Positions 7,236-64,000 are shown, counted from the stretch's first letter. The stretch: 64,000 bases of DNA from Squalus acanthias (GCA_030390025.1 CM059431.1:135224001-135288000); one strand, 5' to 3'. Notes: a model not told the origin generated them from the letters alone. Numbers and translations are program-made.

Positions 7236-8407
7236 GGGCTGAATTTTCCCTGCGGAGGCGGGATGGCGGCGGGAGAGCTGGTTGGCGGTTTTCGGTCCCA
7301 CTCCCGTTTGCAGCCGCTCTCTCAAAAAGATTTTCCATAGAGTGGCCTTGTTAAGCCCGACCTGCGGTGTTCCTGGCCAATTAACAGGAAGCGGATCTGA
7401 TGACGTAATTTGATGACGTGCCATCAGCCAGTTTTCATAAAAGGACCATGGCCACATTGATTTGGACAGTTGTGCTGTCAGTGTTCTGCAGCATTGAGGT
7501 GCTACAAACACTGACAAGCAAAAAAAAAGAAAGACTTACATTTCTGTAGCGCCTTTCACGACCACCGGACGTCTCAAAGTGCTTTACAGCCAATTAAGTA
7601 CTTTTGAAGTGTAGTCACTGTTGTAATGTAGGAAACGCGGCAGCCAATTTGCACGCAGCAAGGTCCCACAAACAGCAATGTGATCATAGAATCATAGAAT
7701 CATAGAAAGTTACAGCACGGAAGGAGGCCAATTCAGCCCATCGTGTCCGCGCCGGCCAACAAAGAGCTATCCAGCCTAATCCCACTTCCCAGCTCTTGGT
7801 CAGTAGCCCCGCAGGTTACAGCATCCCAAGTGCACATCCAAGTACTTTTTAAATGTGGTTAGGGTTTCTGCCTCTACCACCCTTTGAGGCAGTGAGTTTC
7901 AGACCCCCACAAACCTCTGGGTGAATAAATTTCCCCTCAAATCCCCTCTAAACCTTCCACCAATTACTTTTAATCGGTGCCCCCTGGCTTTTGACCCCTC
8001 TGCTAAGGGAAATAGGTCCTTTCTATCCACTTTATCTCTGCCCCTCATAATGTTATACACCTCAATAAGGTCTCCCCTCAGCCTCTTCTGTTCCAAGGAA
8101 AACAAACCCAGCCTATCCAGTCTTTCCTCATAGCTAAGATTCTCTATTCCCGGCAACATCCTTGTAAATCTCCTCTGTACCCTCTCTAGTGCAATCACAT
8201 CTTTCCTGTACTGTGGTGACCAGAACTGTACGCAGTACTCTAGCTGAGGCCTAACTAGTGTTTTATACAGTTGAAGCATAACCCCCCTGCTCTTGTATTC
8301 TATGCCACGGCTAATAAAGGCAAGCATTCCGTATGCCTTCTTAACCACCTTATCTACCTGGCCTGCTATCTTCAGGGATCTGTGGACATGCACTCCAAGG
8401 ACCCTTT

Positions 8408-9179
8408 GGGGGAAAAATTGAGTCGCGCCCCCTTTGGGGTGCTTACTTCGCCGGGGCATTACTTTTAGCGCCCCATAAAATTAGCGCCCCCGCACCGGAA
8501 ATTGAGTGGTTGCGCCCCAAGAGGGAAGCGGGGCGCGACTGGAAATGCCCCGCATCCTCTTGGGGCGCGGCAAGTCAATATCGTGGCGTTACGTGCTGCA
8601 GCGCCAACTGCTGCGGCACGTCGCACCGCGGTATTGCAGGCCTTCCTCCCCTTCTTAAAGGGGAGGGGCCTTGCGCAGCGTGAACCGGGGCCCAGCTAGG
8701 CCCCCGGGGATCAGGAGCGCCGGCGAAAGAGCCTGGCACTCAAGAGAAGTGCCGGGCTCTTGGAGTGCAGCCGGCACTTCGTGGGGGGGGGGCTTCACGG
8801 GGACCGGGGACAGCAACAGGGGCAGGTGCTGGCAGGCGGCTATCAACAAAAATGGCCGCCCGCCACCTCCCCTTTAACTAGCGCTGCCCCGGCCGCAGGT
8901 AGTCCCCCTGACCCCGTCGGACATAGCATCCGGCGGTAAGTCAAGGGGTGCTACCGAAGATCGCAGCCGGAGTGCGAGCGGGGCGCTACGCACGGCGATG
9001 AGGTCATCGCCGGCGGCGCAGCGCCACAGGGCGCTACCGGTTAGCGCCGCCGCTAACCTCCCGCTGAATTTCGTGGGAGGCATGGGCGACGCCGCACCCA
9101 GGCACTAGTTGCTTTGCGCCCCATTAGCGCCCTCTTAAGGCGCTAACGGGAGGCGCAAACCAACTGAATTTTTCCCCCC
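8408..9179 (+). mobile_element. GC-rich Harbinger-like MITE, family A
   Basis: TIRs GGGGGAAAAATT / AATTTTTCCCCC. 3-4 bp duplication (TTT/CTTT). Absent from the sister CR1 at ~20170. Confidence 0.9.
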
Positions 9180-9970: not shown

Positions 9971-10211
9971 AATGTATATTCCCTTTCCTTGTTAGCCCTC
10001 CCCAAATGCATTACCTCACACTTCTCCGGATTGAATTCCATTTGCCACTGTTCTGCCCACCTGACCAATTTATTGCTATCTTCCTGCAGTCTACAGCTTC
10101 CTTCTTCAGTATCAACCACACAGCCGATTTTAGTATCATCTGCAAACTTCTTAATCATACCCCCTATATTCAAGTCAAGATCATTGATATATACCACAAA
10201 AAGCAAGGGAC

Positions 10212-11035
10212 ATAGAAACATAGAAACATAGAAAATAGGTACAGGAGTAGACCATTCGGTCCTTCGAGCCTGCACCGCCATTCAATGCGTTCATGGCTGA
10301 ACATGCTACCTCAGTACCCCATTCCTGCTTTCTCGCCATACCCCTTGATCCCCTTAGTTGTGAGTGTTATATCTAACTCCCTTTTGAATATATTTAGCGA
10401 ACTGGCCTCAACAACCTTCTGTGGAAGAGAATTCCATAGATTCACCACTCTCTGGGTGAAGAAGTTCCTCCTCAGCTCAGTCCTAAATGGCTTCCCCTTA
10501 ATCCTTAGACTGTGACCCCTGGTTCTAGTTTTCCCTACCATTGGGAACATTCTGCCCGCATCTAATTTGTCTAAACCAGTCAGGATTTTAAATGTCTCTA
10601 TAAGATCCCCCCTCATTCTTCTGAACTCCAGAGGATACAAGTTCAGTTGACCCAATCTTTCTTGATATGTCAGTCCGGCCATCCCAGGAATCAATCTAGT
10701 GAACCTTCGCTGCACTCCCTCAATAGCAAGAATGTCCTTCCTTAAGTTAGGAGACCAAAACTGCGCACAATACTCCAGGTGTGGCCTCACCAAGGCCCTG
10801 TACAACTGTAGCATCACCTCCCTACTCCTGTACTCAAATCCCCTTGCTATGAAGGCCATCATTCCGTTTGCTTTCTTGACTGCCTGCTGCACTTGCATTC
10901 CCACCTTCAGTGACTGATGTACCATGACGCCCAGGTCTCGTTGCACGTCCCCTTTCCCTAATCTGCCACCATTCAGGTAATAGTCCGCCTCTCTATTTTT
11001 ACCACCAAAGTGGATAACCTCACATTTATCCACAT
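10212..11035 (-). mobile_element. Young 5'-truncated CR1 copy (about 0.8 kb of 3' end)
   Basis: Near-identical to 50171-50994, with (TTCTATGT)n tail. Interrupts the older CR1 at GGGAC|TAGTAC. Confidence 0.95.
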
Positions 11036-14000
11036 AGTACTGAATCCTGCGGAACCCCACTGGAAACAGCCTTCCAGTCACAAAAACACCCATCAACCAT
11101 TACCCTCTGCTTCCTGCCTCCGAGCCAGTTTTGAATCTAACATAACACTTTGCCCTGGATCCCATGGGCTTTTACTTTGTCTGCCATGTGGAACCTTATC
11201 AAAAGTCTTGCTAAAGTCCATATACACTACATCAAATGCACTACCCTCATCTACCCTCCTTGTTACTGCCTCAAAAAATTCAATCAAGTTTGTCAGACGC
11301 GACCTTCCCTTAACAAATCCGTGCTGACTATCCTTGATTAATCTGTGTCTTTCTAAATGAAGATTTATCCTGTCCTTCAGAATTCTTTCCAGTAATTTTC
11401 CCACCACCAAGGTTAGGCTGACTGGCCTGTAATTACTCCGTCTATCCTTTTCTCCCTTTTTAAACAAGGGTACCATATTAGCAGTCCTCCAGCACCACAC
11501 CTGAAGCCAGAGAGGATTGGAAAATGATGGTCAGGGCCTCTGCTATTTCCTCTTTTGCTTCGCTTAACAGCCTGGGATACATTTCATCCGGGACTGGGGA
11601 TTTATCCACTTTTAAAGCTGCTAAACCCCTTCATACTTCCTCTCTCACTATGTTTATTTCATCTAATATTTCACACTCCTCCCCCCGATAGCAATGTCTG
11701 CTTCGCCCCTCTCCTTTGTGAAAACAGGCGCAAAGTATTCATTAAGAACCCTACTGACGTCTCCCGCCTCCACACACAGATTACCCTCATGATTTCTGAT
11801 AGGCCCTACCCTTTCTTTAGTTATCCTCTTACTCTTAATATATTTATAAAACATCTTCGTGTTTTCCTAGATTTTACTTGCCAAGAATTTTTCATGCTCT
11901 CTCTTTGCTTTCCTAATATCCTTTTTAATTGCACCCCTGCACTTTCTGTACTCCTCTAAATATTCTGGAGTATTTAACCCTTGGTATCTGTCATACGCCT
12001 CCCTTTTATTCTTTATCCGGCCCTGTATGTCCCCAGACATCCAGGGGGCTCTAGATTTGTTAGTCCCACCTTTTTTCTTTAAGGGCTCATATTTGGTCTG
12101 AACCCTCCGGATCTCCGCCTTGAATGCCTCCCACTGCTCTGACACTGATTTACCTTCAAGTAGCTGTTTCCAGTCCACTATGGCTAAATTCCCTCTGAGC
12201 TTAGCAAAATTTGCTTTTCCCCAATTTAGAATTTTTATTCCTGGTCTATCCTTGTCATTTTCCATAACTACCTTAAATGTAGCAGCACTATGGTCACTAG
12301 CACCAAAATGCTCCCCCACTGATATGCCTTCAACTGCCCAGCTTCATTCCCTAAAACTAAGTCCAGAACTGCCCCTCCCTTGTTGGGCTTGCTACATACT
12401 GGCTAAAAAATTTCTCCTGGATGCATTTTAGGAATTCCGCACCTTCACACTAATTTTATCCCAGTTAATATTGGGGTAGTTGAAATCCCCTACTATTACT
12501 GCCCTATAGTTTTTGCACTTCTCAGAAATTTGTCTACATATTTGCTCTTCTATCTCCCTCTCACTGTTTGGCGTCTATAGTACAGTCCCAGCAGTGTGAT
12601 TGCCCCTTTTTTGTTTTTCAATTCGACCCATATGACCTCATTTGATGATCCCTCCAACATATCATCCCTCCTCACAGCTGTAATAGTTTCTTTAATCAAT
12701 ACCGCGACCCCCCCTCCCTTTTTACCTCCCTCTCTATCCCGTCTGAAAATCCTGTAACCAGGAATGTTGAGCTGCCATACCTGCCCCTCTTTCAGCCACG
12801 ACTCTATAATAGCTAAAATATCATAGTCCCAAGTATCTACCTGTGCCCTCAGCTCATCTGCCTTGTTCGCTATACTCCTTGCATTGAAGTATATACCATT
12901 TAGTACAGGCAAACCTCCTTGTTGACTACTATCTAGCCCTTGATTCCTCTGTCCTTCCAATTTACTTTCTACGTTTTTGTTTTCCAATTCCAGTTTTTCT
13001 TCCCTCCTTACCAGATAATAACCAGATATTATTTTTTTTTAATGTTGGTTGAGGGATAACTATTGGCCAGGACACCGGGGATAACTCCCCTGCTCTTCTT
13101 CGAAATAGTGCCATGGGATCTTTTACGTCTACCTGAGAGAGCAGACGGGGCCTCGGTTTACCGTCTCATCCAAAAGACAGCACTCCCTCAGCACTGCACT
13201 GGAATGTATCCTAGCTTTATGTGCTCAAGTCCCTGGAGTGGGACTTGAACTCACAACCTTCTGACTCAGCGGTGAGTGTGCTACCCACTGAGCCACAGCT
13301 GGCACTGTACAAAGGTGCACGTCTGCACCCAGGCTCCGCATGACTCCCTCCATATGCTTATAGAGGGAGTCACAACACGCAGGGAGATTCTCTTCCCTTC
13401 CCATGGGTGGAAGAGACCTCCCCAGGAGATCAACACAGTCTGGTTGCACATTGCACAGGAAGACAGAAGCAGGGATGTTGTCAGGAGTGCCTGGCGCCAA
13501 CCTTTCAATGATCTCAGTAGATCATGAAACGTTACTGCAAAGCCACACTCAAACTCACCCTGCTGTGCCACTCATCACATCCCCATCACTCTGCCTTCCC
13601 TACCCTACTCCTGCACATCCTTATTCACACCAACTTACCTTGCACCTCCACCCATCCCTCTCTATCTACATTATCACTTCCCCATCTCACTAGCCACCCC
13701 TCATACTCACCCTCATCCTACTGCAAGCATACCAACTAACAACACACAAGGGTAGGCACTTGAGAGGTTTAGCCAATGTTCATGTGAAGTTTCTGGTAAT
13801 GTGTTGTCATACAGTGAAATCTATATTTTCAACACTTCACCTTATTGGACAGATGTGTACGCACCTTGAGAAGTGTCTTACTGAGTTCCAATGAATGTTG
13901 AGACATAACTTCCCCCCCGCCCCCCCCCCCCGCAATAATGATGTGTGTGCGTTGAATGGCTTGGACATTATAGTGATGCTTTATGTTGCTGGAGTGAATG

Positions 14001-14315: not shown

Positions 14316-14519
14316 CAGATGCAAAGTACTCATTTAGTACCTCAGCCATGCCCTCTGCCTCCATGTGTAGGTCTCCATTTTGGTCCCTAATCGGCCCCAC
14401 CCCTCCTCTTACTACTGGTTTAGTAAGAGGAGGGGTGGGGCCGATTAGGGACCAAAATAGAGACCTACACATGGAGGAAGAGGGCATGGCTGAGGTACTA
14501 AATGAGTACTTTGCATCTG
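14316..14519. repeat. Fold-back inverted repeat of a CR1 ORF2 fragment (99-bp arms, 6-nt spacer)
   Basis: Arms 14316-14414 and 14421-14519, 2 mismatches seen. Encodes VGPIRDQNGDLHMEAEGMAEVLNEYFAS. Confidence 0.92.
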
Positions 14520-16018: not shown

Positions 16019-19000
16019 AGTGTAATAATACCATGCCACAGTTACAGTTTAAACACTGCAGAGATTTTTTTGTTAGTTAGATTTACATCTGAAGTTGAAA
16101 CTGAAGAGGAGGTGATGCAATTTTTACTCTGAGATCTGAAGGTTTAATACCTCTCCTTCATTCTTTGCCACTAATCTAATATTGCTGCAAATCACGAGGT
16201 ATGGCAGGGCAGCTCACACCCGTGGAATGCACATCCTGTGCCATGTGGGAAGTCCTGGATACCTCCCGTGGTCTGGATGACCACATGTGCAGGAAGTGTC
16301 GCCAGCTACAGCAGCTCGAGCACTGGGTTACGGAGCTTGAGCGGCGGCTGCAGTCACTGCTGTGCATCCGCGAGGCTGAGAGCTACGTGGGAAGCACGTT
16401 TCGGGAGGTGGTCACCCCGCAGCTTAAGAGTGTGCAGGCAGAGAGGGAATGGGTGACCGTCAGACAGAAGAGGAGGACCAGGCAGGTAGTGCAGGAGTCC
16501 CCTGAGCCCATCTTGCTCACCAACCAGTATTCGGTGCTGAGTACTGGTAAGGGCGATGGTTCCTCTGGGGAGTGCAGCCAGAGCCAGGTCCACAGCACCA
16601 TGGAAGGCTCAGCTGCACAGACGGTGGGGGGGGTGGGAGGTGGGGGTGCGGTGGTGGAAGAGGAAAGGGAGAGCAATAGTGATAGGGGATTCAATAGTTA
16701 GGGGAGCGGACAGGCATTTCTGCAGCCGCAGACATGACTCCAGGATGGTATGTTGCCTCCCTGGTTCCAGGGTCAAGGATGTCACTGAACGGCTGCAGGG
16801 CATTCTGAGGGGGGAGGGTGAACAGCCAGAGGTCGTGGTCCATATCGGTGCCAATGACATAGGCAGGAAGAGGGATGAGGTCCTGCAAGTAGAGTTTAGG
16901 GAGCGAAGAAAGAGGTTAAAAAGCAGGACCTTAAAGGTAGTCATCTCTAGATTACTCCTGGTGCCACGTGCTAGTGAGTACAGAAATAGGAAGATAGAGC
17001 AGATGAATGCGTGGCTGGAGAGATGCTGTAGGATGGAGGGCTTTAGATTCCTGAGGAATTGGAACCGTTTCTGGGGGAGGTGGGACCTCTACAAGCCAGA
17101 CGGGTTGCACCTCAACGGGAACGGGACCAATATCCTCGCGGGAGGGTTTGCTAGTGCTGTTGGGGAGGGTTTAAACTGGCTTGGCAGGGGGATGGGAGCC
17201 TAAGTATAGAGTCAATAGGGAGGGAAGATAAACTGGAATTGGAAAACAAAAACGTAGAAAGTAAATTGGAAGGACAGAGGAATCAAGGGCTAGATAGTAG
17301 TCAACAAGGAGGTTTGCCTGTACTAAATGGTATATACTTCAATGCAAGGAGTATAGCGAACAAGGCAGATGAGCTGAGGGCACAGGTAGATACTTGGGAC
17401 TATGATATTATAGCTATTACAGAGACGTGGCTGAAAGAGGGGCAGGTATGGCAGCTCAACATTCCTGGTTACAGGATTTTCAGACGGGATAGAGAGGGAG
17501 GTAAAAAGGGAGGGGGGGTCGTGGTGTTGATTAAAGAAACTATTATAGCTGTGAGGAAGGATGATATGTTGGAGGGATCATCAAACAAGGCCATATGGGT
17601 TGAATTGAAAAACAAAAAAGGGGCGATCACACTGCTGGGAGTATACTACGGACCCCCAAACAGTGAGAGGGAGATAGAAGAACAAATATGTAGACAAATT
17701 TCTGAGAAGTGCAAAAACTGTAGGGCAGTAATAGTAGGGGATTTCAACTACCCCAATATTAACTGGGATAAAATTAGTGTGAAGGGTATAGAGGGTGCGG
17801 AATTCCTAAAATGCATCCAGGAGAATTTTTTTAGCCAGTAGCAAGCCCAACAAGGGAGGGGGCGGTTCTGGACTTAGTTTTAGGGAATGAAGCTGGGCAG
17901 TGGGGGAGCATTTTGGTGCTAGTGACCATAATGCTGTTAGATTTAAGGTAGTTATGGAAAATGACAAGGATAGACCAGGAATAAAAATTCTAAATTGGGA
18001 AAAAGCAATTTTGCTCAGCTCAGAGGGGATTTAGCTATAGTGGACTGGAAACAGCTACTTGAAGGTAAATCAGTGTCAGAGCAGTGGGAGGCATTCAAGG
18101 AGGAGATCCGGAGGGTTCAGACCAAATATGTGCCCTTAAAGAAAAAAGGTGGGACTAACAAATCTAGAGCCCCCTGCATGTCTGGGGACATACAGGGTAG
18201 GATAAAGAAACAATGGGAGGCGTATGACAGATACCGAGGTCTAAATACTCCAGAATATTTAGAGGAGTACAGAAAGTGCAGGGGTGCAATTAAAAAGGAT
18301 AATAGGAAAGCAAAAATTCTTGGCAAGTAAAATCAAGAAAAACCCAAAGATGTTTTATAAATATATTAAGAGTAAGAGGATAACTAAAGAAAGGATAGGG
18401 CCTATCAGAGATCATGAGGGTAATCTGTGTGTGGAGGCGGGAGACGTCAGTAGGGTTCTTAATGAATACTTTGCACCTGTTTTCACAAAGGAGAGGGGCA
18501 AAGCAGACATTGCTATTGGGAGGAGGAGTGTGAAATATTAGATGAAATAAACATAGTGAGAGAGGAAGTATGAAGGGGTTTAGCAGCTTTAAAAGTGGAT
18601 AAATCCCCAGACCCGGATGAAATGTATCCCAGGCTGTTAAGCGAAGCAAAAGAGGAAATATCAGAGGCCCTGACCATCATTTTCCAATCCTCTCTGGCTT
18701 CAGGTGTGGTGCCGGAGGACTGGAGGACTACTAACGTGGTGCCCTTGTTTAAAAAGGGAGAAAAGGATAGACCGAGTAATTACAGGCCAGTCAGCCTAAC
18801 CTCGGTCGTGGGAAAATTATTGGAAAGAATTCTGAAGGACAGGATAAATCTTCATTTAGAAAGACACGGATTAATCAAGGATAGTCAGCACGGATTTGTT
18901 AAGGGAAGGTCGTGTCTGACAAACTTGATTGAATTTTTTTAGGCGGTAACAAAGAGGCTAGATGAGGGTAGTGCGCTTGATGTAGTTTATATGGACTTTA

Positions 19001-19395
19001 GCAAGGCTTTTGATAAGGTTCCACATGGCAGACTGGTCATGAAGTTAAAAGCCCATGGGATCCAGTGCGAAGTGTCAAGTTGGATTCAAAACTGGCTTGG
19101 AGACAGGAAGCAGAGGGTAATGGTTGATGGGTGTTTTTGTGACTGGAAGGCTGTTTCCAGTAGGGTTACGCAGGATTCAGTACTAGGTCCCTTGCTTTTT
19201 GTGGTATATATCAATGATCTTGAGTTGAATATAGGGGGTATGTTTTAGAAGTTTGCAGATGATACTAAAATCAGCTGTGTGGTTGATACTGAAGAAGGAA
19301 GCTGTAGACTGCAGGAAGATATCAATAAATTGGTCAGGTGGGAAGTGTGAGGTAATGCATTTGGGGAGGGCTAACAAGGAAAGGGAATACGCAAT

Positions 19396-20132: not shown

Positions 20133-20726
20133 ATTAAATGGTAGGACACTGAGTAGTGTAGAGGAACAAAGGGACCTTGGAGTGCATGTCCACAGATCCC
20201 TGAAGGTAGCAGGCCAAGTAGATAAGGTGGTTAAGAAGGCATACGGAATGCTTGCCTTTATTAGCCTTAGCAGAGAATACAAGAGCAGGGGGGTTATGCT
20301 TCAACTGTATAAAACACTAGTTAGGCCTCAGCTAGAGTACTGCATGCAGTTCTGGTTACCACATTACAGGAAAGATGTGATTGCACTAGAGAAGGTACAG
20401 AGGAGATTTACAAGGATGTTGCCAGGAGTAGAGAATCTTAGCTATGAGGAAAGACTGGATAGGCTGGGTCTGTTTTCCTTGGAACAGAGGAGGCTGAGGG
20501 GAGACCTTATTGAGGTGTATAAAATTATGAGGGGCCTAGATAGAGTGGATAGAAAGGACCTATTTCCCTTAGCAGAGGGGTCAAAAACCAAGGGGCACAG
20601 ATTTGAAGTAATTGGGGGAAGGTTTAGAGGGGATTTGAGGTGAAATTTCTTCACCCAGAGGGTTGTGGGTGTCTGGAACTCACTGCCTGAAAGGGTGGTA
20701 GAGGCAGGAACCCTAACCACATTAAA

Positions 20727-20948
20727 AAAAATGAGAAGTCACACAACACCAGGTTATAGTCCAACAGTTTTATTTGAAATTACGAGCTTTCGGAGCTCTG
20801 CTTCTTCGTCAGGTACAGTGAGCAGTGACGAAGGAGCAGCGCTCCGAAAGCTCGTAATTTCAAATAAAACTGTTGGACTATAACCTGGTGTTGTGCGACT
20901 TCTCATTTTTGTCCACCCCAGTCCAACACCGGCATCTCCGCATCATGA
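20727..20948 (+). mobile_element. Short Penelope-derived fold-back insertion with minimal hammerhead motifs
   Basis: 85-bp arms 20727-20811 and 20826-20910, then a ~38-nt tail GTCCACCCCAGTCCAACACCGGCATCTCCGCATCATGA. TSD ACCACATT(T)AAA. Confidence 0.85.
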
Positions 20949-22589
20949 CCACATTTAAAAAGTACTTGGATGTGCACTTGGGATGCTGTAATCTGCAGGG
21001 CTACGGACCAAGAGCTGGGAAGTGGAATTAGGCTGAATAGCTCTTTGTTTTGGCTGGCACGGACACGATGGGCTGAAATGGCCTCCTTCCGTGCTGTAAC
21101 TTTCTATGATCTATGTTTCAAACTAAATTAATTAATATGCAGATATTATCATCAGAGCTCATGAGCATCAAAGTGGAATTAGTCCCAGTCCACAGTAAAA
21201 ATGATTTCTGTGAGTTCCAGTTATTCATTCCATTTCTCACTCACGGGAGTAAATTATTATCTGCACTGCATGGGGGTAATCTGGCGGAACTGATTACCCG
21301 CTCGTTAGTTTAACCATTCCATGGACAGTTTTGAAAATGGATTGTTGATCTGCTCCGCCAGATTACTGCCCAACATTGAAGATGAAAATTTACCCCACGT
21401 TCTCTTATTCCTTCCTTTTTGCTCTCCTCTCCACGTGCACTACGTGTGCTCCATTTACCTTCTCTCTTACTTTCCGTCTCACAGTCCTTCCCTTTCTCCC
21501 GCAATGTAAGTCAGCCATGTTCTTTCTGTAGTCCCCTGTAGCTGCCGCTTTATGCTGTCATGTCATTGCCTATGACTTCAGTCACTCCCCTTCCTCAATG
21601 TCCACTTTATCTTGTCCAGTCACTTAGATCTATATCATTGTTCAGCTATCACAGCTCCCACTGCTACAATATTACAATTTTGCAGAATTTAAGGCCTTAC
21701 TGAATTTAAATATGACAGAGAATTTTCTAAGAGCAAACATTATTTGGCATTATATACACCAATTTGGAATTTTTCAACCTCATTCTTTACTTAATATTAA
21801 ATAGTTTGAAACTACAGTTAACATACAGCTTCAGATGGAGACTGTAAGATAGTTAAATGATTGGAAACTGTCCTGAGAATATAAACTATGTAAATAATAA
21901 TGAGGATCCCCATTATATAACATTTCAATAATTCATGTTGGCAAGGTTTGGGTTAACTTTTGTGTTCATGAATGCAAAGGACGTGAGTACTGAAAACAGA
22001 ACAGTTTTCTTTTTTTGCATCTACTGTCAGCCTGAAGAATTCCCAGTTGGGTATAGTACAGTCAGGTTCAGAGTAACACTCCTTCTGCTCTACCCAGCAA
22101 TGTCTTAACCCCAGCCTCAGAAGAGCACCATGTACTGCATCATTTTGACAATTCCATTTCCCACACCAGCCGTCACTGTGGTCTCTCTGAATGAGATTGC
22201 CAATTAAATTGAGCTTATTCAGTGAAATTTCAAACTTGTTCAGCCACAGTTTAATTTTATACATATGGAATCAATTCTATTAGTGAACAGCTGATTGGAG
22301 TAAAGTGTAATGGTACTGAGAGAACGGTATTCATGAAGCTTCTCCTTATTTTTGCAATTTCCACCGTTTTTAATTGGCAATCTCTGCTCAGTTTTATTTA
22401 TCGATGTGAACTTCCTTTCACAATTAGATTTTGAACTTGTTTTCAATATAGGTGATTTATAATAGTGTGATAATAACAACTTTAACAAAAATGTATTATT
22501 TAGCAGAAGAAATTGAAAGATATATTTACAAGATAAACAGTAGTGATATCCGTATCATTTAGCTATGAATAAAAATATATTTAGAATCA

Positions 22590-28056: not shown

Positions 28057-29250
28057 ATACCTTTAGACATCCAGGGAGTTATAGCTTAGGATGCCTTTCC
28101 CTTCACTCTCGTGGGAACATATCTAGTCTGTACCTGAACTATCTCCTCCTTGAAGGCCTCCCATTGCTCATTTACTGTTTTACCTCCCAATCTTTGAATC
28201 GATTTCCACCTGAGCCAGATCCATTTTCAACTCACTGAAATTAGCCCTCCTCCAGCTTAGTATTTTCACGTTTAATTGTTCCTTGTCCTTTTCCATAACT
28301 ACTCTAAACTTAATAATATTGTGATCACTATTTCCCAAATGCTTCCTCACTGAAACATGCTGCACTTGCCCCACTTCATTCCCTAGAACCAGATCCAGTG
28401 CTGCTTCCTTCCTTGATATGATAGCAAAATACTGCGGATGCTGGAAATCCGAAATAACAACAGAAAATGCTGGAAAAACTCAGCAGGCCAGACAACATCC
28501 GTGGAGAGAGAAACAGAGTTAACGTTTCAGGTCGAAACCCTTCGTCGGAACCAACGAAGGGTTTCGACCTGAAACGTTAACTCTGTTTCTCTCTCCACTG
28601 ATGTTGCCTGGCCTGCTGAGTTTTTCCAGCATTTTCTGTTGTTATTTCTGTTTCCTTCCTTGTTGGGCTGGAAACACACTGCTCAAGAAAGTTCACTTGT
28701 ACACATTTCAGGAACTCGTCCCCCTCTTTACCCATAACGCTGTCATTTTCCAGTCTATGTTAGGATAATTGAAGTTTCCTATTATCACTACTCTCTAGTT
28801 CTTGCATCATTCTGTAATTTGCCTGCAAATTTGTTCCTCTATCTCCTTCCCACTATTTGGGAGCCTATAGTAAACACTCAGCAGCGTAATAGCTGCTCTA
28901 TTGTTCGTTAATTCTTACCAAGTACATCATCCCTTTCCAGTGCTGTAACAGTATATTTGACCAATAGTGCCACCCCTTCCTTTTGTTCCTGTCCTATCTT
29001 TCCTGAATAACTTGTAGTCAGGAATATTAAGTTCCCAATCCTCCCCTTGTCTGAGCCAGGTCTCTGTTATTGCCTCTATATCACAGCCCCATGTGGCAAG
29101 TTGTGTCTGCAGCTCACCAACCTTATTTACAATACTCCATGCATTTATGCACATGCACTCCAATCCTATCCTAGCCTGCCTTGCATTTTACTCCCTGTAC
29201 GATCCCTCCTATATCTGAACTACTCTATGTTCTAATTGCTATGCAGGACA
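28057..29250 (-). mobile_element. Degenerate CR1 endonuclease-region fragment
   Basis: INAWSIVNK..ITETWL and LGNSDHN peptides. Confidence 0.85.
28416..28648 (-). mobile_element. Short Penelope-derived fold-back insertion (second family) with degenerate hammerhead motifs
   Basis: 95-bp arms 28451-28545 and 28554-28648, and a 35-nt tail at 28416-28450. 14-bp TSD TGCTTCCTTCCTTG / TGTTTCCTTCCTTG. Confidence 0.85.
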
Positions 29251-47958: not shown

Positions 47959-50895
47959 ATGCAGTCAGAAACAAATGTTAGAAGGGTGAGAAACAATAGG
48001 GGAAGGCCGAGTAAACAAAGGCAAGAAACACAAAGGGCCATACTAAATCATAAGTCTAAAAGGACAAAGGATGTTAATAAAACAAGCCTAAAGGCTCTGT
48101 GTCTTAATGCAAGGAGTATCCGTAATAAGGTGGATGAATTGACTGTGCAAATAGATGTTAACGGATACGATGTGATTGGGATTACAGAGACGTGGCTCCA
48201 GAACAATCAAGGCTGGGAACTGAACATCCAGGGGTATTCAACATTCAGAAAGGATAGAATAAAAGGAAAAGGGGGTGGGGTAGCATTGCTGGTTAAAGAG
48301 GAGATTAATGCAATAGCTAGGAAGGACATCAGCTTGGAGGATGTGGAATCAATATGGGTTGAGCTGCAGAACACCAAAGGGCAGAAAACGTTAGTGGGAG
48401 TTGTGTACAGACCTCCAAACAGCAGTAGTGAGGTGGGGGAGGGTATGAAACAGGAAATCAGAGGTGCGTGCAAAAAAGGCACGGCAGTTATCATGGGTGA
48501 CTTTAATATGCATATAGATTGGGCTACTCAAACTGAAAGCAATACGGTGGAGGAGGATTTCCTGGAGTGTTTAAGGGATGGTTTCCTAAACCAATATGTT
48601 GAGGAACCAACTCGAGGGGAGGCCATCCTGGACTGGGTGTTGTGTAATGAGGAAGGACTAATCAGCAATCTTGTGGTACGAGGCCCCCTGGGGAAGAGTG
48701 ACCATAGTATGGTGGAGTTCTACATTAGGATGGAGAAGGAAACAGTTAAGTCAGAGACCATGGTCCAGAACTTAAATAAGGGCAACTTTGAGGGTATGAG
48801 GCGTGAATTGGCGAGGTTAAATTGGCAAGCGATATTTAAGGGGCTATCAGTGGAAGGGCAATGGCAGACATTTAGAGATCGCATGGATGAACTACAACAA
48901 TTGTACATCCCGGTCTGGCGTAAAAATAAAAAAGGGAAGGTGGCTCAACCATGGCTAACAAGGGAAATCAGGGATAGTATTAAAACCAAGGAAGTTGCAT
49001 ACAAATTGGCCAGAAGTAGCAGCAAACCCGGGGACTGGGAGAACTTCAAAACTCAGCAGAGGAGGACGAAGGGTTTGATTAGGGCAGGGAAAATAAAATA
49101 TGAAAGGAAGCTTGCAGAGAACATTAAAATGGACAGCAAAAGCTTCTATAAATATGTAAAAAGAAAGAGGTTAGTAAAAACAAACGTAGGTCCCCTGCAG
49201 TCGGAAACAGGGGAAGTCGTAATGGGGAACAAGGAAATGGCAGATCAATTGAACAAGTACTTTGGTTCGGTGTTTACTGTGGAGGACACACACAACCTGC
49301 CGGAAATAAAAGGGGTCAGAGGATCTGGTAAGAGGGAGGAGCTGAGGGAAATCCTTATTAGTCGGGAAAAGTTATTGGGGAAATTGATGGGACTGAAGGC
49401 TGAAAAATCCCCAGGGCCTGATGGTCTGCATCCCAGAGTACTTAAGGAGGTGGCCTTGGAAATAGTGGATGCATTGACAATCATTTTCCAACATTCCTTA
49501 GACTCTGGATCAGTTCCGATGGAGTGGAGGGTGGCCAATGTAACCCCTCTTTTTAAAAAAGGAGGGAGGGAGAAAGCAGGGAATTATAGACCGGTCAGCC
49601 TGACATCGGTTGTGGGTAAAATGATGGAAGCAATTATTAAAGATGTCATAACAGACCATTTGGAAAGTGGCGACATGATAGGTCCAAGTCAGCATGGATT
49701 TGTGAAAGGGAAATCATGCTTGACAAATCTTCTGGAATTTTTTGAGGATGTTTCCAATAGGGTGGACAGGGGGGAACCAGTAGATGTGGTGTATTTGGAC
49801 TTTCAGAAGGCCTTCGACAAGGTTCCACACAAGAGATTGGTGAGCAAAGTTAAAGCACATGGGATTGGGGGTAATGTGTTGACGTGGATTGAGAACTGGT
49901 TGGCACACAGGAAACAAAGAGTAGGAGTAAATGGGTACTTTTCAGAATGGCAGGCAGTGACCAGCGGGGTACCGCAGGGTTCGGTGCTGGGACCCCAGCT
50001 GTTTACATTATATATTAATGATTTGGACGAAGGGATTAAATGTAATATCTCCAAATTTGCGGATGACACTAAATTGGGAGGCAGTGTGAACAATGAGGAG
50101 GATGCTAGGAGGCTACAGAGTGACTTGGACAGGTTGGGTGAATGGGCAAATGTATGGCAGATGAAGTACAATGTGGATAAATGTGAGGTTATCCACTTTG
50201 GTGGTAAAAATAGAGAGGCGGACTATTACCTGAATGGTGGCAGATTAGGGAAAGGGGAGGTGCAACGAGACCTGGGCATCATGGTACATCAGTCATTGAA
50301 GGTGGGAATGCAAGTGCAGCAGGCAGTCAAGAAAGCAAACGGAATGATGGCCTTCATAGTAAGGGGATTTGAGTACAGGAGTAGGGAGGTGATGCTGCAG
50401 TTGTACAGGGCCTTGGTGAGGCCACACCTGGAGTATTGTGCGCAGTTTTGGTCTCCTAACTTAAGGAAGGACATTCTTGCTATTGAGGGAGTGCAGCGAA
50501 GGTTCACTAGATTGATTCCTGGGATGGCCGGACTGACATATCAAGAAAGATTGGGTCAACTGAACTTGTATCCTCTGGAGTTCAGAAGAATGAGGGGGGA
50601 TCTTATAGAGACATTTAAAATCCTGACTGGTTTAGACAAATTAGATGCGGGCAGAATGTTCCCAATGGTAGGGAAAACTAGAACCAGGGGTCACAGTCTA
50701 AGGATTAAGGGGAAGCCATTTAGGACTGAGCTGAGGAGGAACTTCTTCACCCAGAGAGTGGTGAATCTATGGAATTCTCTTCCACAGAAGATTGTTGAGG
50801 CCAGTTCGCTAAATATATTCAAAAGGGAGTTAGATATAACACTCACAACTAGGGGGATCAAGGGGTATGGCGAGAAAGCAGGAATGGAGTACTGA
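47959..50895 (+). CDS. CR1 ORF2: APE-type endonuclease plus reverse transcriptase (978 aa; the frame is open upstream to 47902)
   Basis: LNARS, ITETWL, YRPP, GDFN and SDH (EN); [28 protein letters not shown] and FADD (RT). No stops. Confidence 0.96.
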   Translation: MQSETNVRRVRNNRGRPSKQRQETQRAILNHKSKRTKDVNKTSLKALCLNARSIRNKVDELTVQIDVNGYDVIGITETWLQNNQGWELNIQGYSTFRKDRIKGKGGGVALLVKEEINAIARKDISLEDVESIWVELQNTKGQKTLVGVVYRPPNSSSEVGEGMKQEIRGACKKGTAVIMGDFNMHIDWATQTESNTVEEDFLECLRDGFLNQYVEEPTRGEAILDWVLCNEEGLISNLVVRGPLGKSDHSMVEFYIRMEKETVKSETMVQNLNKGNFEGMRRELARLNWQAIFKGLSVEGQWQTFRDRMDELQQLYIPVWRKNKKGKVAQPWLTREIRDSIKTKEVAYKLARSSSKPGDWENFKTQQRRTKGLIRAGKIKYERKLAENIKMDSKSFYKYVKRKRLVKTNVGPLQSETGEVVMGNKEMADQLNKYFGSVFTVEDTHNLPEIKGVRGSGKREELREILISREKLLGKLMGLKAEKSPGPDGLHPRVLKEVALEIVDALTIIFQHSLDSGSVPMEWRVANVTPLFKKGGREKAGNYRPVSLTSVVGKMMEAIIKDVITDHLESGDMIGPSQHGFVKGKSCLTNLLEFFEDVSNRVDRGEPVDVVYLDFQKAFDKVPHKRLVSKVKAHGIGGNVLTWIENWLAHRKQRVGVNGYFSEWQAVTSGVPQGSVLGPQLFTLYINDLDEGIKCNISKFADDTKLGGSVNNEEDARRLQSDLDRLGEWANVWQMKYNVDKCEVIHFGGKNREADYYLNGGRLGKGEVQRDLGIMVHQSLKVGMQVQQAVKKANGMMAFIVRGFEYRSREVMLQLYRALVRPHLEYCAQFWSPNLRKDILAIEGVQRRFTRLIPGMAGLTYQERLGQLNLYPLEFRRMRGDLIETFKILTGLDKLDAGRMFPMVGKTRTRGHSLRIKGKPFRTELRRNFFTQRVVNLWNSLPQKIVEASSLNIFKRELDITLTTRGIKGYGEKAGMEY

Positions 50896-51764
50896 GGTAG
50901 CATGTTCAGCCATGAACGCATTGAATGGCGGTGCAGGCTCGAAGGACCGAATGGTCTACTCCTGTACCTATTTTCTATGTTTCTATGTTTCTATGGAGGG
51001 TGGACGATGGGAGAGCATTGAAATAGTTAAGCCTGGAGTTGACAAAGGCATGGATGAGGGATTCAACGGCAGATGGAGTGAGGTAGGGGTAGTGAGGGGT
51101 GATGTTATGGAGGTAGAAGTAGACAGTCTTTGTAATGGCAAGACATGGAGTCAGAAGCTCAGTTCGGGGTTAAATAGGATGCTGAGGTTGCGAACATTCT
51201 GGTTCAGCCTGAGACAGTGGTCAAGGAGAGAGATTGACTCAGTGGCTAGGGAACAGCGTTCGTACCGGGGGCCAAAGACTCTGCTTTCATCTTCCCAATG
51301 TGTAATTGTAGGAACTTTTGCCCACCCAGAACTGGAAGTTGGATAAACAGTCTGAAAGCAGGTCGAGAGAGGTAGTGGTGAGATAAAGTGTTAAGATCGG
51401 CTGGGCCTCTGTGTTCCCGGCCTTGGCGGGTTCTTCCCACACTCCCATGCTTCCCAGCACCCTCCCCTCCTCCCTGTTAATATCAGGGCCCATGTCTTTG
51501 CATCATGTCGCCGAGGGGCAGCAAATAGATGAGAAATAGGAGGGGGCCAGGGATAGATCCTTGGGGACTACAGAGGTAATGACACAGGGACAGGAAGAGA
51601 AGCCATTGCAGGAGATTCTCTGGCTATGACTGGATAGGCAAGAATGGAACCAGGTGAGGGCAGTCCCACTCAACTAGACAATGGAAGAGAGACATTCGAG
51701 GAGGATGGTGTGCTCAACCATGTCCAAGGCTGCAGAGAGATCGAGAAGGATGAGGAGGGATAGT

Positions 51765-61379: not shown

Positions 61380-62942
61380 ATAGAGTCATAGATTTATACA
61401 GAACAGAAAGAGGCCCTTCGGCTCATCATGTCCGTGCCGGCCATCAATCCCTGTCTATTTTAATCCCATTTTCCAGCACTTGGTCCATAGTCTTGTATGC
61501 TATGGCGTTTCAAGTGCTCATCTAAATGCTTCTTGAATGTTGTGAGGGTTCCTGCCATCATCAACCTTTCAGGCAGTGGGTTCCAGATTCCAACCACCCT
61601 CTGGGTGAAAAAGTTTTTCCTCAAACCCCTCTAAACCTCCGGCCCTTACCTTGAAACTATGCCCCCTGGTTATTGAGCCCTCTACTAAGGGGAAAAGTTC
61701 CTTTCTATCTACCCTATCTATGCCCCTCATAATTTTGTACACCTCAATCAGGTCCCCCCTCAGCCTTCTCTGCTCTAAGGAAAACAACCCCAGCCTGTCC
61801 AGTCTCTCTTCATAGCTGAAGCGCTGCAGCCCAGGTAACATCCTAGTGAATCTCCTCTGCACCCTCTCCAATGCAATCACATCCTTCCTATAGTGTGGCG
61901 ACCAGAACTGCACACAGTATTCGAGCTGTGGCCTAACTAGTGTTTTGTACAGCTCCATCATAACCTCCCTGCTCTTATATTCTATGCTTCGGCTAATGAA
62001 GGCAGGTATCCCATATGCCTTTTTAACCACCTTATCTACCTGTCCTGCTGCCTTCAGGGATCTATGTACATGCACGCCAAGGTCCCTCTGATCCTCTGTC
62101 CTTCCTAGGGTCCTACCATTCATTGTATATTCCCTTGCCTTGTTAGTCCTCCCAAAATGCATCACCTCTCATTTTTCAGGGTTAAATTCCATTTGCCACG
62201 TTTCTGCCCATCTAACCAACCTGTCTATATCGTCCTGTAGCCTGAGGCTTCCCTCCTCGCTATTTACCAACCCACCAATTTTCGTGTCATCTGCGAACTT
62301 ACTGATCATACCTCCTACATTCATATCTAAATCATTAATGTACACTACAAACAGCAAAGGACCCAGCAGCGATCCCTGCGGTACACCACTGGACACAGGC
62401 TTCCAGTCACAAAAACAACCTTTGACCATCACCCTCTGCCTCCTGCCACTAAGCCAATTTTGGATCCAATGTGCCAAGTTGCCCTGGATCCCATGGGCTT
62501 TTACCTTCGTGACCAGTCTCCCATGCGGGACTTTGTCAAAAGCCTTACTGATGTCCATGTAGACCACATCAACTGCACTACCCTCATCCACACACCTAGT
62601 CACCCCCTCGAAAAATTCAATCAAATTGGTCAGACATGATCTCCCCCTGACAAAGCCATGCTGACTATCCTTGATTAATCCTTGCCTCTCCAAGTGGAGA
62701 CTAATTCTGTCCCTCAGCATTTTTTCCAATAATTTCCCTGCCACTGATGTTAGGCTCACTGGCCTGTAATTCCCTGGTTTATTCCTGCTACCCTTCTTGA
62801 ATAATGGTACTACGTTAGCTGTTCTCCAGTCCTCTGGCACCTCCCCTGTGGTCATGATGCGGAGATGCCGGTGTTGGACTGGGGTGGACAAAATTGAGAG
62901 GTCGCACAACACCAGGTTATAGTCCAACAGTTTTATTTGAAA

Positions 62943-62984
62943 TCACAAGCTTTCGGAGCTATCGATTGCTCCTTCCTCAGGTGA
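62943..62984 (-). ncRNA. Minimal type I hammerhead ribozyme motif (left arm)
   Basis: Reverse complement of 63725-63766. Confidence 0.75.
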
Positions 62985-63724
62985 AGTAAATTAGATACAG
63001 AATCGCCAAAGCATATATAGATAGAGAACAAAGCATGTGTACCTTACAATTGCAGACCACTAAATTAAATCATCCTGACTATCTGCCGAGGTGTGATAAA
63101 GTTAATCAAGTCAGCCAGGAAGGTACCACATCAAAGACATAGCAAGATACAACTGAGACAATGAGGTGTAGTCGCAGGGGTTCTAACGTGTCAAAAGCTG
63201 CCGTCTGTATGTAAAACGAAAAGCTTTAAAATTTTTACTTTTTTACTGGGAAAATTTTTACTTTTTTACTGGGAATCACATCTGTGAACAAGCCAGCGAC
63301 GACTCGAGTCCGGATCACGTCATGTATCGTGACATAAACCCAAGATCCCGGTTGAGACCGGGATCTTGGGTTTATGTCACGATACATGACGTGATCCGGA
63401 CTCGAGTCGTCGCTGGCTTGTTCACAGATGTGATTCCCAGTAAAAAAGTAAAAATTTTCCCAGTAAAAAAGTAAAAATTTTAAAGCTTTTCGTTTTACAT
63501 ACAGACGGCAGCTTTTGACACGTTAGAACCCCTGCGACTACACCTCATTGTCTCAGTTGTATCTTGCTATGTCTTTGATGTGGTACCTTCCTGGCTGACT
63601 TGATTAACTTTATCACACCTCGGCAGATAGTCAGGATGATTTAATTTAGTGGTCTGCAATTGTAAGGTACACATGCTTTGTTCTCTATCTATATATGCTT
63701 TGGCGATTCTGTATCTAATTTACT

Positions 63725-63766
63725 TCACCTGAGGAAGGAGCAATCGATAGCTCCGAAAGCTTGTGA
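63725..63766 (+). ncRNA. Minimal type I hammerhead ribozyme motif (right arm)
   Basis: TCAC-CTGAGGA-A-GGAGC(aatcgata)GCTCC-GAAA-GCTT-GTGA: stem I TCAC/GTGA, both core boxes, and a palindromic AAGCTT in place of stem III. Confidence 0.75.
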
Positions 63767-64000
63767 TTTCAAATAAAACTGTTGGACTATAACCTGGTGT
63801 TGTGCGACCTCTCAATTTTGACCTCCCCTGTGGCCAGAGAGGTTCTGAAAATTTGTGTCAGAGCCCCTGCAATCTCCTCCCTTGCCTCACACAGCAGCCT
63901 GGGATACATCTCATCTGGGCCTGGGGATTTATCCACTTTTAAGCCTGCTAAAACCGCTAGTACCTCCTCCCTCTCAATACTAATTTGTTCAAGTATATCA

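Follow-up and report, generated by a model that had tools for sequence, protein, structure and literature searches.

How does a retroelement come to lie in a chromosome as a perfect head-to-head palindrome that carries a tail at one end only? The question is raised by a locus in the window, the 64,000-nucleotide stretch of the dogfish (Squalus acanthias) genome that we analyzed (GCA_030390025.1, CM059431.1:135224001-135288000). Computed self-comparison gives two perfect arms of 464 bp each (62889-63352 and 63357-63820; 0 mismatches) separated by the spacer TGAG (63353-63356). Arm comparison leaves a 37-nt unpaired tail on one side (62852-62888, minus strand), and an exact 13-bp direct repeat, the target site duplication (TSD), flanks the insertion as plus-strand copies on the left (62839-62851) and right (63821-63833). 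An earlier sequence-only reading had described this anatomy by eye, and all of it was reproduced. That reading had gone on to propose that a single cDNA stopped at a native micro-hairpin, folded back, and copied itself as far as the tail. The results below lead us to favor a different origin, in which both ends of a nicked target would prime reverse transcription.

The element reads on the minus strand. With a real long copy (L031) as coordinate reference, in which position 1 corresponds to window 62852, the tailed arm is continuous native element from 62852 to 63360 (reference 1-509, 100% identity to the long copy over 509 nt), and the tail-less inverted arm runs on the plus strand from 63357 to 63820 (reference 501 to 38, by self-comparison). 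Read across the axis, the minus strand translates as GLNRDLGFMSRYMT followed by a stop; this matches the C-terminus of the family's open reading frame (ORF), and the axis had thus rightly been placed at the end of a Penelope-type ORF. The last 14 codons and stop of this RT/GIY-YIG ORF occupy 63315-63359 (minus strand, by translation). The long copy has an open frame of 873 residues, with a Pfam RVT_1 match above cut-off, and its translation carries DKG, YIDD, and VVY-x-YIG motifs. A Pfam search of this ORF gave no GIY-YIG match, so the endonuclease assignment rests on motifs: two cysteines lie between VVY and YIG with two histidines downstream, as in a CCHH motif, and a C-x4-C-x2-C linker lies ahead of the endonuclease. 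EN+ Penelope-like elements are described with a CCHH motif and two cysteines between GIY and YIG, and the Neptune and Nematis clades with a CX2-5CxxC linker between RT and endonuclease (PMC8557442). Judged by these motifs, the element is a Neptune- or Nematis-type Penelope-like element and a new member of a known clade; the linker excludes Penelope/Poseidon. A PDB sequence search found no solved relative and returned one match at E 0.84.

The family has the pseudo-LTR, the tail, the inverted copy, and a partial tandem (L025), in which the tail lies directly 5' of the probable start codon and the preceding native bases end in GTGG. From this partial tandem, a probable ORF start codon can be placed inside the tail of the palindrome locus (62855-62853, minus strand). 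The pseudo-LTR also contains a putative minimal hammerhead-like motif (reference 88-137; window 62939-62988 on the minus strand, mirrored at 63721-63770 on the plus strand), with stem I, a CUGAGGA core, stem II, GAAA, and a palindromic AAGCUU. Stems I and II are present in the fold, at a z of -1.2 that is not significant by itself, and the core letters were read from the sequence. One arm (L064) ends at the predicted cut; an Rfam search of the long copy returned no hammerhead match and four chance-level matches only.

The palindrome interrupts ORF2 of a LINE, which we take to be CR1-like, on the minus strand (extent mapped within 62600-64000). The host frame reopens across the empty site once the insertion and one TSD copy are deleted in silico, which marks it as a true insertion. 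It had been called very recent; it is young, with its recency bounded only by the 0 differences in 464 bp between the arms. Three other loci are 100% identical to it over the entire 501-nt tailed arm, including a 23-bp tandem duplication (63228-63273, plus strand; mirror at 63434-63479). The duplication is in both arms, as had been noted, but it is family-wide and therefore uninformative on mechanism. Among the contigs from four short-read runs over 62500-63385, no listed piece crosses the axis with 31 letters per side. In the last bin beyond the axis, X1 and X3, both from one sample that may be the assembly source, show depth, and X5, of which about 55% was read, and X7 show none; this pattern is neither independent support nor a sign of an empty allele. 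The same check listed no RNA dataset as containing the sequence of the locus.

In its layout the locus is ordinary, one among thousands of insertions with the same anatomy. Across the 3.7-Gb assembly, a pseudo-LTR 35-mer has 19,777 exact matches, the first 100 of which include 27 convergent pairs within 3.5 kb and 0 divergent pairs, and there are at least 3,402 short convergent pairs (span up to 434 bp). For closer study we took short insertions in genome order from the start of contig C1 (60, plus a held-out 20); these 80 are a biased sample, with spans below about 470 bp and exact motifs required, and 7 longer pairs among the 27 convergent ones were left out. Also biased are the 30 long loci, chosen for a tailed arm of at least 501 nt. 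Joints close to the axis of the palindrome locus were drawn from 36 near-symmetric joints within 60 nt of it, or 35 once a segmental duplicate (C24:3266086) was set aside; a second count omitted 6 joints on unplaced contigs as possible duplicates, leaving 29 on chromosome-scale contigs. L065 and L170 were over-extended by the aligner because of native stem II, and L065 was corrected by hand in the joint statistics only.

We propose, with a probability of about 0.7, that the family inserts by double priming: a dimer nicks the target, two cDNAs are made from two start sites, and microhomology joins them. The endonuclease/RT complex would have two-fold symmetry, in the simplest case as a dimer; it would bind TG-N16-CA and nick the two strands 12 nt apart, and both 3' ends would prime reverse transcription with 0 to 4 nt of pairing. 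The outer start site would yield the tailed arm, and a start about 40 nt further in would yield the tail-less arm, both cDNAs usually being copied from the same RNA. Penelope-like RTs are without RNase H, so one stretch of RNA can be copied twice. The trailing polymerase would displace the leading cDNA, and the two cDNAs would end at a similar place, whether set by the 5' end of the RNA, by a roadblock, or by the displacement fork. Their 3' ends, identical in sequence, would anneal head to head by short complementarity (a CCGG-like palindrome or a short inverted repeat) and would then be trimmed and filled in; the joining may be due to host end-joining, such as polymerase theta, or to RT template switch. 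Priming from one nick alone would leave a solo copy, either tailed or tail-less. At the palindrome locus, on our reading, the top-strand nick primed at the outer site and gave the tailed arm, and the bottom-strand nick primed a second cDNA at the inner site, the tail-less arm. The evidence consists of finished insertions only, with no intermediate seen; their sequences display the symmetric target, the stagger, two start sites used in vivo, the one-tail rule, both polarities, the shared template, and the microhomology joints, and from these we infer the dimer, the single RNA, strand displacement, and the joining enzyme.

The tail-less end has the properties of an independent priming junction. 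In 56 of 56 scored insertions the tail-less arm starts at reference 33-45, and this end overlaps the target by a mean of 1.7 nt, versus 0.4 by chance. Among 20 unpaired motif matches, 14 start tail-less and 6 tailed (4 of the 6 proved inverted). Half of the tail-less starts (7) are complete solo copies with 8-14-bp TSDs and the other 7 run off the fetched stretch; tailed solos with 11-12-bp TSDs also exist (L008, L018, L020, and L024). On the strength of the fixed start, the target overlap, and the tail-less solos with TSDs, the inner site is a priming site in vivo, which speaks against the proposal that the tail-less arm is a copy of the tailed cDNA that merely stops at the tail. A single tail per insertion is the rule: genome-wide, 3,476 matches join a tail to an opposite arm, versus 66 two-tailed matches, many of which have arms of different subfamilies, and 49 of the first 50 pairs have one tail, the remaining one (L174) having none.

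Some insertions have other forms. Very small palindromes (44-68 bp) that have two tails and consist solely of tail sequence were found at G000:C1:152553733, C1:153180445, C3:45773918, and C8:19647107. The second arms of L010, L014, L022, and L032 begin inside the element and not at the inner site, and a clear TSD is missing in three of these four. L022 has an inverted piece 5' of the first arm's end, the signature of L1 twin priming, and L010 and L014 partially resemble that form.

TSDs are 12-14 bp long in 50 of the 60 short insertions and in 19 of the 20 held out, and the rebuilt empty sites are two-fold symmetric, TG-N2-[12 nt]-N2-CA. Among sites with an exact 12-bp TSD, 19/30 match all four letters and 27/30 at least three (0.6% and 5.5%, respectively, in random window DNA); G and C are both present in 21 of the 24 distinct ones. 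Distinct sites in register have T in 50/56, G in 53/56, C in 54/56, and A in 43/56. The held-out sites behave likewise (four letters in 12/20, null about 1-2%; at least three in 20/20, null about 5-16%), and the tail-less solos have the full TG-N16-CA motif in 5/7. All four letters are also found at the palindrome locus, where target alignment places the left half-site TG at 62835-62836 (positions -4/-3 before the 12-nt core) and the right half-site CA at 63835-63836, both on the plus strand. The true stagger there is most likely 12 nt, the 13th base of the TSD being primer microhomology common to target and element, because the native element sequence before the tail and the TSD both end in GTGG. 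A nick at the edge of the 12-nt core fits 68/71 tail-less ends and 52/71 tailed ends; a further 17/71 tailed ends reach 1-2 nt beyond the core, where the reference is without native bases before the tail and the ends are unscorable. Symmetry of the site together with a constant stagger would be expected from a dimeric nickase.

The host LINE site at 62839-62851 is a recurrent target, which tailed, tail-less, and inverted copies have entered in either orientation (L022, L055, L094, L116, L126, L139, L147, and L153), and at least two other LINE sites recur likewise; the target motif explains this recurrence. One insertion (L100, G000:C1:23157712-23158007) lies, with a 12-bp TSD, in the pseudo-LTR of another family copy. 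Elsewhere in the window, 20727-20948 holds a second, older insertion of a related subfamily with one tail, a short inverted arm, and an imperfect TSD. Two palindromes of about 200 bp and 94-95% identity lie at 14316-14519 and 28443-28655. Long inverted repeat pairs of 93-99% identity (11032-13010 and 17216-19188; 10211-11041 and 50165-50995; 7689-8408 and 20167-21119) are probably LINE copies, and the last of these pairs flanks the Penelope-like insertion at 20.7 kb and is its host repeat.

The stem-II haplotype is identical between the two arms in 48/56 pairs, where 13% would be expected of independent arms. Of the eight pairs that differ, five owe this to joint artefacts or point changes, and the other three pairs (L093, L105, and L174, the last being the tail-less pair) have two different subfamily haplotypes on their two arms. 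The arms thus seem, from these haplotypes, to come usually from one template and now and then from two. Two haplotypes are incompatible with fold-back unless gene conversion followed, and the three discordant pairs could indeed reflect ectopic gene conversion; shared haplotypes fit snap-back as well as they fit a single RNA.

Arm lengths bear on polarity. The tail-less arm is the longer one in 43 of the 80 short insertions, by up to 538 nt (in the 60, 29 with the tail-less arm longer, 27 with the tailed arm longer, and 4 equal; in the held-out 20, 14, 4, and 2); among 17 long insertions it leads in 6, the largest difference being 498 nt. A lead of at least 40 nt is held by the tail-less arm in 8/60 and by the tailed arm in 2/60. 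A fold-back copy cannot exceed the first cDNA, and a longer tail-less arm is therefore not a snap-back of the tailed one, contrary to what the sequence-only reading had proposed. Central deletions after insertion may shorten either arm of a palindrome, which blurs this argument where the difference is small. The lengths are nevertheless coupled: away from a common stop, 11/15 arm pairs agree within 22 nt (permutation mean 3.9, p 4e-5), as do 6/17 long pairs within 31 nt (permutation mean 0.8). In the 60 insertions, 17 arms of each type, tailed and tail-less, extend to the common stop at reference 133-138, which is likely to be the 5' end of the RNA, whether a transcription start or an exonuclease stop at a protected structure. 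It corresponds to window 62984-62989, at the 5' edge of the hammerhead-like motif, and the longer arm ends there in 25/60. Arm ends also recur inside the ORF, at reference 1497 in four loci and at 1954-1955 in two (L020, L021, L022, L035, and L034), L035 using both. In long copies, the arm-private differences do not distinguish RT errors from later mutation.

The joint of the palindrome locus is the native micro-inverted repeat CGGT-TGAG-ACCG (63349-63360, plus strand), -2.6 kcal/mol as a DNA hairpin. It had been said to be native, and all 27 other loci with an end anchor run through it into element sequence (2 of 30 loci are without the anchor). The tailed arm thus extends to 63360, and the arms overlap by 4 nt of microhomology. 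A 4-bp stem with a 4-nt loop would end at a random element position with a chance of 2%. From this single joint, pairing in cis within a hairpin and pairing between two cDNAs give identical sequence.

Within 60 nt of the axis the commonest kind of joint (17/35) is a palindrome with no loop, centered on native GATC (4), CCGG (7), TCATGA (3, two with one mismatch), or AT (3). On chromosome-scale contigs alone the zero-loop count is 13/29 (null at most 5.4%, p 1e-9). A zero-loop center cannot be paired by a single strand and can be paired by two identical strands, which argues against a hairpin and hence against the proposed fold-back. We considered the repeated zero-loop joints as copies of one palindromic source and rejected this because they belong to different subfamilies. 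Three zero-loop sites of 4-6 nt near the axis were used 14 times; three looped 4-bp sites were used cleanly twice, once at the palindrome locus, whose exact joint occurs once in the near-axis list, and once at L040. In L040 the same micro-hairpin has its loop on the tail-less arm, as it has imperfectly in L037 and L039, which likewise counts against fold-back of the tailed cDNA. In the short set, microhomology of at least 2 nt is present at 28/48 clean joints (null mean 7.5) and hairpin-compatible stems of at least 3 bp at 7/41 (null 1.2), 4 of the 7 with the tail-less arm longer; the expectation that axes would be non-random with respect to micro-complementarity was thus borne out. Extra bases, 3-18 in number and some plainly templated from nearby sequence, are found at 12/59 joints; templated bases of this kind are a signature of polymerase theta end-joining.

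Not all of this favors double priming. Hairpin-compatible stems are enriched, and zero-loop joints are rarer in the AT-rich stretch (3/31 perfect palindromes, read off the list without a computed null) and in the short set (4/48; null 1.0, p 0.014). The in vitro start site described for a Penelope-like protein is alike for top and bottom strands, which also counts against double priming, and that protein is a Poseidon and not a Neptune (PMC11167929).

The explanation that best survives beside double priming is a hybrid, in which both nicks prime but one of the two cDNAs folds back at a micro-hairpin, and the strand copied in this way pairs with the remaining cDNA. It would account for the native stem and loop exactly at the axis, for the enriched stems (at near-symmetric joints and in both polarities), and for the coupled arm lengths, it keeps a hairpin at the palindrome locus while leaving the tail-less end a priming site, and snap-back joints have been described as a class among R2 insertions (PMC11371274). 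However, it cannot yield zero-loop joints, used so much more often than clean looped ones, and 32/48 near-symmetric joints permit a stem of at most 1 bp. We regard the hybrid as unlikely for the family, yet fully possible for the single joint of the palindrome locus.

Less likely again is the route first proposed, in which one cDNA from the tailed end stops at the hairpin, folds back, copies to the tail, and is joined to the target, with later central deletions making the arms unequal. It fits the palindrome locus exactly, and mostly haplotype-identical arms of coupled length are in its favor, but it cannot explain the many longer tail-less arms, above all those leading by 40 nt or more, and gives no reason for a stop at reference 33-45, where solo copies also start. 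Nor does it predict primer microhomology, zero-loop joints, or arms of two subfamilies, and as a general route it is largely refuted by the family data. Self-priming on antisense RNA, giving a palindromic intermediate that is later integrated, was proposed from inverted-junction palindromes and intron retention (Arkhipova et al. 2013, PMC3846280); here we consider it very improbable, as both outer ends resemble target-primed junctions with a fixed stagger and an overlap of 0-4 nt, both tailed and tail-less solos occur, and joints are spread over the entire element in both polarities. Least credible of all is an assembly artefact or a pair of independent neighboring insertions: perfect long palindromes are a known artefact of long reads and no read was seen across the whole locus, but the one-sided tail, the single TSD, the restored host frame, the thousands of copies of the same anatomy, and the absence of divergent close pairs from the first 100 35-mer matches speak against it.

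The layout itself was already known, and double priming as we propose it differs from L1 twin priming, of which it is a variant, in that the second start site is fixed. In twin priming, attributed to Ostertag and Kazazian (2001), both target ends reportedly prime on one RNA and the two cDNAs are said to join by microhomology, giving an inversion inside one TSD. The dogfish family resembles this, judging by junction signatures only, in the priming of both target ends on RNA and in the microhomology of the internal joint. For L1, the site of the second primer is random, internal, and ahead of the first cDNA, and the pieces do not overlap. In the dogfish family that site is fixed, about 40 nt from the first; the same sequence is therefore copied twice, and palindromes make up a large share of the insertions. 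The L1 work is cited in PMC11371274 and also treated in bioRxiv 10.1101/2024.12.14.628481. The known analogue of single-cDNA fold-back is the snap-back 5' junction of R2, in which the 3' end of the cDNA primes on the cDNA itself and leaves an antisense piece beside the target; that piece is described as ending variably (PMC11371274), whereas in the dogfish family the end of the inverted arm is a fixed start site showing priming microhomology, and this arm often exceeds the other in length.

For EN+ Penelope-like elements, the inverted pseudo-LTR, one-sided tail, and junction palindromes are in print (PMC3846280; Craig et al. 2021, PMC8557442), and the dogfish family shares with them the head-to-head inverted copy, the 30-40-nt tail at one end, the TSD, and the junction palindromes; the putative hammerhead-like motif would correspond to the hammerhead in their pseudo-LTR. 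In those two papers the palindromes are explained by self-priming on an antisense template and the tail by resolution through the endonuclease, and the cycle is described as undefined. The targets described for the published elements are AT-rich or microsatellite DNA, unlike the symmetric TG-N16-CA with a 12-nt stagger used here, and, unlike the published reading, the dogfish data point to two target-primed cDNAs. The closest biochemical parallel is PAc, a Poseidon of Anolis, which in vitro nicks and extends both strands, has two starts that bracket the tail, and is predicted to be a dimer (Frangieh et al. 2024, PMC11167929). The dogfish insertions show a matching pair of starts in vivo, one on either side of the tail. 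PAc differs in its clade and in its ATT cleavage preference, and it starts more than 100 nt into the ORF (PMC11167929), whereas the dogfish family starts at and just before its probable start codon. As far as its accessible text goes, that study leaves the second-strand steps open and does not tie the start sites to the inverted arm. In the literature that we searched, with closed-access reviews and supplements outside it, no account of double priming or of a symmetric target was found for Penelope-like elements.

Penelope-like elements are the closest relatives of telomerase among retrotransposons. The origin of their inverted repeats and one-sided tail was called undefined in the text of a 2021 review (PMC8557442), and a young, high-copy family offers thousands of base-resolved events that bear on this mechanism. 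The predictions that follow from double priming, for the target motif, the stagger, the strand that carries the tail, and the spectrum of joints, are suited to the existing in vitro system, and a protein that by itself primed both target ends at a defined 20-bp symmetric site would be of interest for RNA-templated insertion tools. We would give even odds to a broader proposal, that Penelope-like elements in general integrate as a symmetric dimer on TG-N16-CA with a 12-nt stagger, two RTs working on one RNA from two fixed starts, with the inverted pseudo-LTR as the second cDNA and the tail as the stretch of RNA that tethers one active site to the other. If this is true, a single scheme would account, across all Penelope-like elements, for the tail and the one-tail rule, for the inverted repeat, for the TSD, and for the solo copies.
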